This document shows, in pieces, positions 26,701 to 30,626 of a DNA stretch of 64,000 bases (position 1 is the first letter of the stretch; each line of letters starts with the position of its first letter). The notes below the pieces were generated by a model that did not search any database, was not told the DNA's origin, and saw only the letters and a program-made list of their open reading frames with translations. This DNA is from Acidobacteriota bacterium. Lineage in GTDB: Bacteria; Acidobacteriota; Thermoanaerobaculia; Multivoradales; JAHZIX01. A program made the translations under genes and the position numbers. The stretch spans positions 120,590 to 184,589 of the forward strand of contig JAXHTF010000001.1 of NCBI GenBank assembly GCA_034211275.1, written 5' to 3'.

Positions 26701-29700
26701 AAGCCAGCGAAGGAGCCAGTGAGCAAACCAGCGAAGACGCCGCCCGGGTCCACGAACTCACCGCCCTCGCCGTGGCGGTAGCGGACGCCGGCACGGCCCA
26801 GGCGCCCGCGGAGCTAACGCTGGTCGCCCGCGGTCTCGCCAGCGTCGCCGGCGAGGGACCGGTGGAACCCGCCAAGGCGCTGCTCACCGGCGTGGTGGCG
26901 GTGCTGCCCCAGGAGGAGGCGAGCCTGGTCTGCCGCGGCCTCGACCTCACCGGAGCCCCGGAGGAGCCGGCTGCGCCGGCGATGGTGGAGACCCTGGCCC
27001 GGGAGCTCCTGGCGGAGGAGCCGGCGGAGACCCCGGCCGATGCGGCGACCGGGCTGCGCTGGCGCTGGGTGGCGCTGCGCGGCGACCGCCGCTTCGCCCG
27101 GCGCCTGAGCCCGTGGGCTCTCGCGACCGACGACGGCCCGCGAGACGACGGGAGCTGGCTGCGGGAGGAGGGCGCCTACCTGATCACCGGCGGCCTCGGC
27201 GGTCTCGGCTGGACCCTGGCCCGCCGCCTGGCGGAGGAGCGCCGAGCACGGCTGGTGCTCATCGGCCGCTCCCCCTTTCCGGCCCGCGAGACCTGGGACG
27301 AGATCCTCGCCGATGCCCACCACAACACGCCGCCGGACATCCGCCAGCGCATCGCCGAGATCCGCAGCCTGGAAGCCGCCGGTGCCCGCATCCTGGTGCG
27401 CTCCGCCGACGTCACCGACGCCGGCGCAATGGCGCAGGTCTTCGCGCGGGCGGAAGAAGAGCTGGGTCCCCTGGACGGCGTCTTCCACGCCGCCGGCGTT
27501 CCCGGCGGCGGCATCGCCCGCCGGCGCAGTGCCGAGGAAATGGCCGTGGTGCTGGCGCCGAAGGTCGCCGGCACCCGGGTTCTCGACCAGCTCCTCAGTT
27601 CGCGGCCGGAAACTTTCTTGGTGCTCTTCTCCTCGGTCAACGCCGTCCTCGGCGGCGTCGGGCAGGTGGACTACGCCGCCGCCAACGCCTACCTGGACGC
27701 CTTCGCCGAGGCCCGCCGCGGCGAGGGCCGCCGCGCCCTGGCCATCGATTGGGACGCCTGGCGGGAGGTGGGCATGGCCGCCGCTGGAACCCGCCTCGAC
27801 CCGCGGCGCCACCCCTTCCTGCAGCGCATCGAGAGCTCCGACGGCACCCTCACCGCTCACAGCGAGCTGCAAGCGGGACAGACCTGGGTGGCGGACGAGC
27901 ACCGGATCCTCGGCCGTGCCGTGGTCCCCGGCACCGGCCAGCTGGAGATCGCCCGGGCGCTCTTCGAGTCTCAGGAGGAGGGCGGCTCCCCAGCAAACCG
28001 GGCGGTGGAGATTCACGACGTCTTCTTCATGGCTCCCCTGGTGCTGGGCGAGAGCCCCCGGCAGGTCCAGGCTCGGCTGGAGCCCGCCGGCGACGAGTAC
28101 CGCTTCCAGCTCGCCAGCCGCCCGGCGAGCACCGGAGGCCCGGTGGGACCGGACGACGGGCCGGAAACGGTGCACGGGGTGGCGCGGGTCCGGGGCGTGG
28201 AGGCTGCCGCCGGCACCGTCGACCTCGACGCCTTGCGGCAGCGCTGCCGCAGCACGCCGCCGGAAGAGCGGCTGCGCACCTGGTGGCTGGGCTACGACGG
28301 CTCCCGAGACGACGAAGAGGTGGCGCGCTACGGCCCGCGCTGGCGCAGCCTGGTCTCCTTCTACACCTCCGGACCGGAAGCTGGCGACGACGAGAGCCTC
28401 GCGGAGCTGCGGCTGGATCCTCAGGTCGCCGGCGATCTGCGGCTCTTCTCCTTCCACCCGGGCCTGATGGACGTCGCCGTGGGCAGCCTCTACCGCGCCC
28501 GGGACCGCGGTCCCTACGCGCCTTTCAGCTACCGCCGGCTGCGCATCTTCGGCGCCATCCCCGAGCACGTGGTGGTGCACGCCCGGCGCAGAGGTCTCGA
28601 TGAGGCCAGAGCTCTTGGTGAGGAAGCGGACGGCGACGCTCCCGAGAGCCTGAGCTACGACGTGACCGTCTGTGACCCCGAGGGCCGGGTGCTGGTGGAG
28701 GTGGAGGACTACACCTACAAGCGGGTGCGCATGGATCCCATGGCGGCCGATGAAGCCAACGAAGAGGGCGAGCAGAAACCGAAGCAGGCGGCGAGACAGC
28801 CGACGGTGCTGCAGCGGGGCCTGGCTCCGGAGGAGGGCCTGCGGGTGTTGGAAGGGCTGTTGAGCCATCCAGCACCGGCGCGGGTGGTGGTCTCCACCGT
28901 CGATCTGGAGGCGCTGGAGCAGGAGATCTTCGCCCGCATGGAGCAGCTCCGGGCCCCGGCGGCGGCCCGACCGGCGCATCCGCGGCCGGATCTGGCAACC
29001 CCCTATGTGGCGCCGCGCAACCCGTCCGAGGAGCAGCTGGCGGAGATCTTCCAGCAGGTCTTGGGCATCGAGCGGGTGGGGATGGACGACTCCTTCTTCG
29101 AGCTCGGCGGCGATTCGGTGATCGCCATCCAGGCCATCGCCCGCGCCGGCCAGGAGGGCTTCCAGCTCTCCCCCAACGACCTCTTCCAACACCCGACGGT
29201 GGCACAGCTGGCGGAGCGCGCCGGCAGTGGCGAGGCGCCGGCGGCCACCCGGCTGCCGCCCATCGAGGCCACCGAGGGGGAGGTGCTGCCCCTGTCCCTG
29301 AACCAGGAACGCTATTGGGCCCGCTACCGCCGCGGTGGCGCCAGTGCTTCCCTCAACCTGCCGCTGGCGGTGGGTTTCGTAGGGCGGCTGAACCTGCCGG
29401 TGCTGGCCGCCGGTCTGCAGCTCATTCTCGACCGCCACGAGGCCATGCGGACGCGCTTCCGCCAGGGCGACGACGGGGCACAGCAGGTGGTGCTGCCCCG
29501 GCTGCGGCTGCGCATGCCCCTGGTCGACCTCAGCCGGCTACCGGAGGAGGTGTCGAAGCTGGAGGCGCGGCGGCTGCGGGATCATGAGGCGAGCCACGTC
29601 TTCGATCTGGAGCGGGAGATCCTCTTCCGCATCACCCTGATCCGGCGCTCTGCCGAAGAGCACGAGCTCTTCGTCATCAAACACCACCTGATCACCGACG

Positions 29701-30626
29701 GCTGGTCCGGCGGCCTCTTCGCCCAGGAGCTGGCGGAGCTCTATGCGGCGACGGTGGAGCAGCGCGAGCCCCGGCTGCCCCGGCTGCCCATCCGCTACGG
29801 CGACTACGCCGTCTGGCAGCGGGAGCATCTGGTGGCCGGTGGCGTGCTGGCGGAGCAGCTGGAACACTGGCGCGGCGAGCTCGACGGCGGCGACTTCCCG
29901 ATCCTCGAGCTTCCCGGCGACCACCCGCGCCAGGGCGGCGGCGGCTTCCCCTCGGAGGACATCTTCCGCCAGCTGCCGGCAGAGCCCTACGAGGCTCTCA
30001 AGGCCTTCGCCCGCAGCCACAACGCGACCCCCTTCATGGTCCAGCTGGCGGCTCTCAACGTGCTGCTGGCGGCCTACACCGGCCAGCGGGACATCGCCCT
30101 CACCACCGACGTGGCGAATCGCGAGCGGGTGGAGACCGAGCCCCTCATCGGTCTGTTCACCAACGTCCTGGTGCTGCGCAACGACCTGGCCGGCGATCCG
30201 ACGGTAGAGGAGCTCTTGGAGCGCACCCGCAACTCCACGGTGCGCTCCTTCGATCATCAATTCCTGCCCTTCGCGGACCTCATGGGAGCCCTCAAGCCCG
30301 GCTGGCTGGAGGCCTATCACCAGGTCTTCCCGGTGGCCTTCGTATTCCAGAACTACCCCGGCCGCAGCTTTTCGCTGCCGGGGCTGGAGCTGCGCTCCCT
30401 GGAGATCGACCCGGGGGCGGTGTCCCGGGATCTGCTGGTGATCACCGGCGAGACCGGCGACGGCCTGCGGGTGGCCTTCCGCTATCGCACGGACCTCTTC
30501 GAGGCGTCGACGGTGGAGCGCCTGGTGGAGGATTATCTGGGCCTGCTGCGGAGTCTGCCGGAAGACCCCCAGCGCCGGCTCTCGGACCTGCTGGCGCCGC
30601 TCTCGTCACCGGCGCCAGCGCGCTAG
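23742..30626 (+). CDS. hybrid PKS-NRPS: KS-AT-KR-DH-T-C (terminal condensation domain, no TE)
   Basis: KS: TACSTSLVALH, EAHGTGT, NVGHLD. AT: GHSLGEWVAAC with SHAFHS. KR: YLITGGLGGLGWTLARRL Rossmann. DH: HRILGRAVVPGTG (HxxxGxxxxP). Carrier: FFELGGDSVIAIQA. C: HHLITDGWS. Start ATG overlaps the stop of the upstream gene (ATGA). Confidence 0.9.

Follow-up and report, generated by a model that had tools for sequence, protein, structure and literature searches.

We analyzed a 64,000-nucleotide stretch of DNA from an uncultured, metagenome-assembled Acidobacteriota genome (contig JAXHTF010000001.1, positions 120,590 to 184,589; hereafter the window), which has a G+C content of 70%. Three megasynthase genes, P1, P2 and P3, lie in it in the same direction and occupy positions 2447-30626. 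This hybrid line, built from modules of the polyketide synthase (PKS) and of the nonribosomal peptide synthetase (NRPS) kind, ends in a condensation (C) domain at the end of P3. Next to it, on the opposite strand, lies a gene for a 461-aa protein with the fold of class I aminoacyl-tRNA synthetases (aaRS). We consider it quite possible, if still short of probable, that the terminal C domain and the adjacent aaRS-like enzyme together carry out a carrier-less last step of the line, in place of the usual series of C, A (adenylation), peptidyl carrier protein (PCP) and thioesterase (TE) domains. Termination by a C domain would then occur here in a new form, with a plausible new component. The features that bear on this reading are the following (KS, ketosynthase; AT, acyltransferase; KR, ketoreductase; psiKR, pseudo-ketoreductase; DH, dehydratase):

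23742..30626, plus strand: P3, 2294 aa, KS-AT-psiKR-KR-DH-carrier-C, assigned by Pfam, an NCBIfam KR-prefix match and active-site motifs
29031..29219, plus strand: carrier domain of P3 (PP-binding, aa 1764-1826), with the NRPS-type FFELGGDS motif; donor carrier for the terminal C domain
29283..30590, plus strand: terminal Condensation domain of P3, LCL-like (aa 1848-2283; PF00668, E=8e-75)
29682..29708, plus strand: HHLITDGWS (HHxxxDG intact), residues 1981-1989; kept in the loci L001, L002 and L003
30627..30642: spacer GTGGCACCAAGGGGCG, 16 nt between two convergent stop codons
30643..32028, minus strand: class I aaRS-fold protein, 461 aa, the proposed partner of the terminal C domain
31918..31929, minus strand: H34-V-G36-N37 of this protein (cHxGN in the family consensus), where strand 1 ends, ahead of helix 40-49

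An original prediction, made from the letters alone, had read the assembly line as ending in a C domain without a release domain. P3 is a PKS module that ends in a C domain, not an NRPS module. Pfam places (in aa) KS at 10-384, AT at 528-802, KR at 1144-1342, DH at 1357-1664, the carrier at 1764-1826 and Condensation at 1848-2283, and the active-site motifs GHSLG, HAFH and HxxxGxxxxP are present. The C domain with HHLITDGWS is indeed the end of the line. It is full length: the match scores 252.6 bits, where the curated cut-off is 30.6, and covers positions 4-444 of the 456 in the profile. Only the start given for the region, 29270, was one base out of frame, since the reading frame begins at 29271. 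A loss of the second histidine of HHxxxDG had been named as a sign of an inactive domain, and both histidines are retained. Core motifs C1-C6 were found in the domain and C7 was not detected. From these motifs, the terminal C domain looks catalytically intact. The stop codon of P3 (TAG) occupies 30624-30626 and that of the minus-strand open reading frame (ORF; CTA) 30643-30645, so the predicted 16-nt gap to a convergent gene is real. No TE or reductase (R) domain was found by Pfam in any codon-biased ORF of the window, and a hidden Markov model (HMM) built from 70 PCP-TE proteins found no TE in any of its stop-to-stop ORFs of at least 80 aa.

Relatives keep the C domain in last place. The protein ends just past the domain, with the same HHLITDGWS, in L001 (C domain 94% identical), L003 (71%) and L002 (59%, Thermoanaerobaculia). 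As the arrangement is kept in relatives, it is not an accident of assembly. Outside its own orthologues, the nearest database relatives of the domain are C domains of about 40% identity that are mostly followed by an A domain. Its top PDB sequence matches are Txo2, 5u89, Txo1, the "special condensation domain" 8z0q and TycC6; McyB and SrfA-C, the top matches of the DCL-like first C domain of P1, score far weaker. On the strength of these relatives and PDB matches, the terminal domain would be, by sequence, an ordinary LCL-type elongation domain.

The convergent gene had been treated in the original prediction only as a boundary that excludes a missed release domain downstream. There is indeed no release domain in cis. 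However, the gene lies within the cluster and is not its boundary, because two further genes of the cluster come after it, both syntenic in L001 and L003:

32103..33911, plus strand: ABC exporter of the cyclic-peptide type (TIGR01194)
33982..34686, plus strand: CsgG/LpoB-like lipoprotein, syntenic with the exporter

The 461-aa product is identical to the NCBI protein "SX243_00405". It has no match in Pfam, NCBIfam or PHROGs and no sequence-profile match to a named aminoacyl-tRNA synthetase, MshC or BshC family. Scanning each member of the family alignment at E<=10, and the family profile against PDB sequences, also gave no matches. The assignment comes from structure: the protein has a Rossmann-type catalytic fold that is superimposable on class I synthetases, which places it among the class I aaRS/HUP nucleotidyl-transferases. 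In the secondary structure of the model, H34-x-G36-N37 sits between strand 29-34 and helix 40-49. These three residues are invariant across 35 sequences, and the family member in protein P0181 has HIGN. We infer from this position that HxGN is the counterpart of the class I HIGH signature. The family also carries HAGGSxSQYY, which may resemble the GGSDQW motif of TyrRS. The median pI of the family is 6.6, with no hint of tRNA binding, and ARAGORN found no dedicated tRNA genes near the aaRS-like genes. Its lone call in the window, tRNA-Arg at 9925-9992 (minus strand), lies inside the P1 coding region and was taken as a probable false positive. A literature search returned no description of the family or of its pairing with terminal C domains.

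The family is very rare. A profile search (E<=1e-3) found 65 representatives among 1.84 billion representative proteins; with such rarity, chance adjacency to a terminal C domain is negligible. We collected gene contexts by exact-protein look-ups and two collection scans and annotated them by BLAST and with HMMs made from the window's own domains. After merging the loci with aaRS-like proteins at least 90% identical, about 15 loci had usable flanks. In ten of them the aaRS-like gene lies within 40 nt of the end of a synthetase with C as its last domain, or is fused to it. In the window (with L001) and L003 the synthetase ends in PKS-carrier-C and the gene pair is convergent. L004, L016 and L011/L026 have C-A-PCP-C, and the stop and start codons of the two genes overlap or nearly so. 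A-PCP-C stands beside the aaRS-like gene in L007, L008 and L024, L022 is known as a fragment, and L028 contains the fusion. Thus, the upstream architectures vary and the terminal C domain is the sole constant. In L014, L019 and L023 a terminal-C synthetase lies within 10 kb of the aaRS-like gene, and in L013 a protein with FAAL-ACP-C-A-PCP-C-A-PCP-C (ACP, acyl carrier protein) lies directly downstream and runs off the locus. We found Leu at the first x of HHxxxDG in 10 of 13 terminal domains and in 3 of 97 background motifs; this difference is confounded by relatedness and is not relied on. A private active-site signature was not found in the terminal domains, as Thr before the Asp of this motif also occurs in 21 of the 97 background motifs.

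The fusion in L028, P0181, is one chain of 2050 aa with the order C-A-PCP-C-linker-aaRS-like. The linker is in frame, about 30 residues long and rich in Ser, Gly and Pro, and the domains on both its sides are complete. The aaRS-like domain occupies the place where an A domain would come after C. L004 and L028 stand alone, and their 5-10 kb flanks contain no other NRPS gene. The TE HMM found no TE in any locus with an aaRS-like gene; for the terminal-C loci this covers 10 kb. In such minimal clusters the aaRS-like protein is the sole candidate for supplying the acceptor, which favours a functional unit of C domain and aaRS-like enzyme in the window too. In L004, L016, L026 and L028 the aaRS-like gene is directly followed by an ADOP/MacB-type permease gene of the same permease family as that at 8-1546 of the window. 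The metagenome-assembled genome HKST-UBA06 has two aaRS-like paralogues, and each has its own terminal-C synthetase as a neighbour (L003/L010 and L014).

Other genes recur near the family. Loci of the A-PCP-C class share two ATP-grasp ligases, an aminotransferase and a second unknown protein of about 480 aa. Members of the latter family (39-54% identical, no Pfam match) lie at L007:6962-8389, L008:2956-4389 (minus strand), L023:8509-9975 and L014:1426-3252 (minus strand). L008 additionally has a phosphoenolpyruvate (PEP) mutase and a phosphonopyruvate-decarboxylase-like gene, and this gene content suggests a phosphonopeptide cluster. L026 contains a second NRPS that ends in C (HHIVCDDWS; 15577-21357, minus strand) and is convergent toward the aaRS-like, permease and ABC genes, so that two terminal C domains stand there with one aaRS-like gene. 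In L006 (7441-11392) the aaRS-like member is accompanied by a 72-aa ORF, a class V aminotransferase and a cyclase-like gene, and in L025 (37-4995) by an aminotransferase, a PhyH dioxygenase and an ABC-2 transporter.

We propose the following sequence of events. The terminal C domain would be a working LCL-type domain that has no carrier-bound acceptor of its own and acts with the product of the convergent gene. The acceptor of LCL-type C domains is an L-aminoacyl amine, and we count this in favour of the proposal, as the terminal C domains are LCL-like. The aaRS-fold enzyme, most likely with ATP, would activate an amino acid or build an amine derived from it. It may then contact the C domain and offer a free alpha-amine to the acceptor site. 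The enoyl-peptidyl chain bound to the P3 carrier would be transferred to this non-tethered nucleophile, with amide formation and release in one step. Candidate acceptors are an aminoacyl-adenylate, an aminoacyl-tRNA and a free aminoacyl-amine made in the manner of MshC and BshC, the amino acid-amine ligases with a class I aaRS fold that act in the synthesis of mycothiol and bacillithiol. A more specific form of the proposal is rather doubtful, and we offer it tentatively. It would be a previously unrecognised NRPS/PKS termination module, in which a terminal LCL-type C domain is paired (once fused) with a class I aaRS-fold enzyme that takes the place of an ANL-type adenylation domain, a carrier and a thioesterase. 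Here the amine used by the C domain would be that of an amino acid activated by the enzyme and not bound to a carrier (an adenylate or a tRNA ester), and the addition of the last residue would itself release the product.

Several results weigh against a functional unit of this kind. No equivalent of KMSKS can be assigned in the aaRS-like family. We considered the invariant K418, which lies in a long loop (YNKyG), but it comes after a helical region. We know of no C domain that accepts an adenylate-bound or tRNA-bound amine. There is no synthetase near the aaRS-like gene in L006 and L025, so the family is not obligately linked to NRPSs, and L002 has no aaRS-like gene in the 244 bp after its C domain. 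The gene pair of the window is convergent, whereas in most other loci the two genes are co-transcribed. The aaRS-associated terminal C domains form no clear separate clade; that of the window is 43% identical to the terminal and 42% identical to the internal C domain of L004. The other points on this side come from the genes before P3 and beyond the left edge of the window, where the following features lie:

L009:4848-5900 (minus strand) and L029:1-1278: PCP-TE-ending synthetase gene, just outside the left edge of the window
8..1546, plus strand: 3' part of an ADOP/MacB-type permease gene, whose start overlaps the stop of the PCP-TE-ending gene beyond the window
2447..13741, plus strand: P1, C(DCL-like)-A-PCP-KS-AT-[about 620 aa without assignment]-ACP-C-A-PCP
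13822..23745, plus strand: P2, C-A-PCP-sulfotransferase-C-A(interrupted by a monooxygenase and an FkbM methyltransferase)-PCP

L009 is a Logan contig identical to the left end of the window. In it a gene ending in PCP-TE (PF00975, E=1.3e-32) lies directly upstream of the permease, and its stop overlaps the permease start by 4 nt; the two are translationally coupled. Unlike the minimal clusters, this cluster thus has a PCP-TE gene, about 3.3 kb upstream of P1. The order is kept in a relative, L029, which has PCP-TE (69% identical), a minus-strand gene of 298 aa where the window has one of 279 aa, and a P1 homologue. The original prediction had itself named a TE gene adjacent to the cluster outside the window as evidence against its interpretation. 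This is partly the case, with the PCP-TE gene upstream of the permease, and it weighs against that interpretation. The interpretation is partly supported: the lack of a release domain in cis stands, but it had overlooked the probable partner as well as the neighbouring TE gene. P1 opens with a DCL-like C domain (2447-3916; top PDB match McyB, 4e-97), and its N-terminus, YPLSPTQQGMLF, reads as the DCL-type C1 motif. Because of this domain, at least one further synthetase has to be placed outside the window. The assembly line most likely begins there, on a protein ending in an epimerization (E) domain, to judge from the type of the first C domain of P1.

An ordinary split module is a possible explanation, which we hold to be on the unlikely side. 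The C domain of P3 would condense its chain onto the aminoacyl-PCP of the upstream TE-ending synthetase, and the TE would release the product. The genes would be non-colinear, and the aaRS-like protein would act as an accessory or in tailoring. One E-ending starter and one TE-ending protein would complete a conventional line together with the DCL-like start of P1. The conventional order N, P1, P2, P3, X (with TE) would use every part, provided that X starts with A-PCP and has no C domain of its own. McyE and McyA may serve as a precedent: McyE reportedly ends in a C domain and McyA begins with an A domain. As in this cluster, a hybrid PKS/NRPS protein ends in C there and the TE synthetase lies in a nearby transcription unit; unlike this cluster, such splits are not known to come with an aaRS-like gene. 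However, the tail of P3 beyond the C domain is short and contains no evident docking element. A split module also leaves unexplained why a family of 65 representatives stands beside terminal C domains, both here and in the loci that have no other module or TE.

It is considerably less likely that the terminal C domain releases the chain alone and its neighbour is not involved. Release could then occur by hydrolysis as reported for crocacin, onto a free cellular amine or alcohol as with VibH, the rhabdopeptide/xenortide NRPSs, OaaC and SgcC5, or onto an intramolecular nucleophile as with FkbP and the fungal terminal C-like (CT) domains. On the CroK-like hydrolysis or free-amine release that the original prediction had suggested, the data speak neither for nor against. 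The catalytic motif of the P3 domain is intact and an acceptor is absent in cis. Bacterial precedents are C domains, terminal or stand-alone, that pass the chain to free nucleophiles in crocacin, FK520 and C-1027 (PMC5640695), and OaaC, which links ACP-bound acyl chains to free amines (PMC13310621). Fungal CT domains likewise stand at the end of the line instead of a TE. They macrocyclise and are marked by the signature SHxxxD, in which the first His is replaced (PMC10510592), and by a blocked acceptor channel. In contrast, the P3 domain has HHLITDG, and TqaA is absent among its PDB matches at E<=1e-10. OaaC belongs to a divergent clade (PMC13310621), whereas the P3 domain looks like a standard LCL domain by sequence, with about 40% identity to ordinary elongation domains followed by A domains. 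Release by the C domain alone also does not account for the conserved aaRS-like neighbour or for the fusion. Still weaker, and very improbable, is the idea that a truncated module has left the C domain as a structural relic, that an unlinked enzyme releases the chain in trans and that the aaRS-like gene is a paralogue with a resistance or housekeeping role: the CON domain at the C-terminus of LovB is reportedly such a relic, and the C-terminal C domains of LovB and MokA are weak PDB matches (E about 1e-16), but the catalytic motifs are all kept across relatives only 59% identical, and the aaRS-like protein has no sequence match to any synthetase family and so cannot be a spare functional synthetase. 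Both of these explanations account for less of the data.

We also compared the pairing of C domain and aaRS-like enzyme with known systems. In VibH, the terminal C domains of rhabdopeptide/xenortide NRPSs, OaaC, SgcC5, FkbP and CroK-C2, as in the window, a C-type domain stands at the end of the line with a carrier-bound donor, no acceptor carrier in cis and no TE in the same protein. These systems take pre-existing free amines, alcohols or water, whereas we propose an aaRS-fold partner. To our knowledge, none of the C-domain off-loading systems has a dedicated class I aaRS-fold partner. Recruitment of a synthetase catalytic fold to secondary metabolism is itself shared with the cyclodipeptide synthases (CDPSs), the MetRS paralogues and the class II amino acid:carrier-protein ligases. 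CDPSs have about 230 aa and lack the HIGH motif, and the ligases are of class II; both are unlike the 461-aa protein. MshC and BshC have no detectable sequence similarity to it, their neighbourhoods differ, and no genes of a sugar or thiol pathway are found here. A survey of class I aaRS folds in peptide secondary metabolism covers only CDPSs and MetRS paralogues and describes neither the aaRS-like family nor any connection with terminal C domains (Aravind et al. 2010, PMC2922099).

In bacteria, C-domain-mediated release is known from a handful of cases, and the supply of the acceptor is usually unclear. The locus offers a concrete and testable partner, as part of a compact, very rare and scattered two-gene unit of a terminal C domain and a class I aaRS-fold protein. 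The unit occurs in Acidobacteriota, Thermoanaerobaculia and Kofleriaceae. A functional pairing would represent a second, evolutionarily independent route of building-block activation for assembly lines and a carrier-free termination module useful for engineering. Genome-mining tools now read such clusters as truncated lines with a hypothetical protein, and the pairing may serve as a new marker. Should the acceptor turn out to be the upstream TE protein, this terminal C domain would be ordinary, yet the association with aaRS-like genes in the minimal clusters still needs explaining.

The rest of the assembly line shows further unusual features. The P1 stretch 8144-10000, about 620 residues between AT and ACP, has no Pfam or NCBIfam match. 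The stop of P2 and the start of P3 share 4 nt. In P3 the DH follows the KR (27171-28733; KS-AT-psiKR-KR-DH), whereas the two usually stand the other way round. P2 has a sulfotransferase domain (PF13469, 17308-17943) between a PCP and the next C domain, an unusual position for an NRPS; a C domain and PF13469 are also combined in P0082, a fragment from Thermoanaerobaculia. Two insertions interrupt the second A domain of P2, a luciferase-like monooxygenase (20530-21414) and an FkbM-type methyltransferase (22459-23040), and the same holds for L003. A monooxygenase inside an A domain is known from MtaG/MelG. The insertions could mean that the loaded residue is alpha-hydroxylated and then O-methylated.

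Farther downstream, at 42002-47509, lies an srsABC-like phenolic-lipid gene set with an FAD monooxygenase, a FAAL-type adenylase, an ICMT-family methyltransferase, a type III PKS and a 127-aa ORF. The type III PKS, FAAL and methyltransferase genes (42-47.5 kb) were considered as a source of the acceptor and rejected, as they belong to this separate set. It lies more than 10 kb downstream, past kinase and surface-protein genes.

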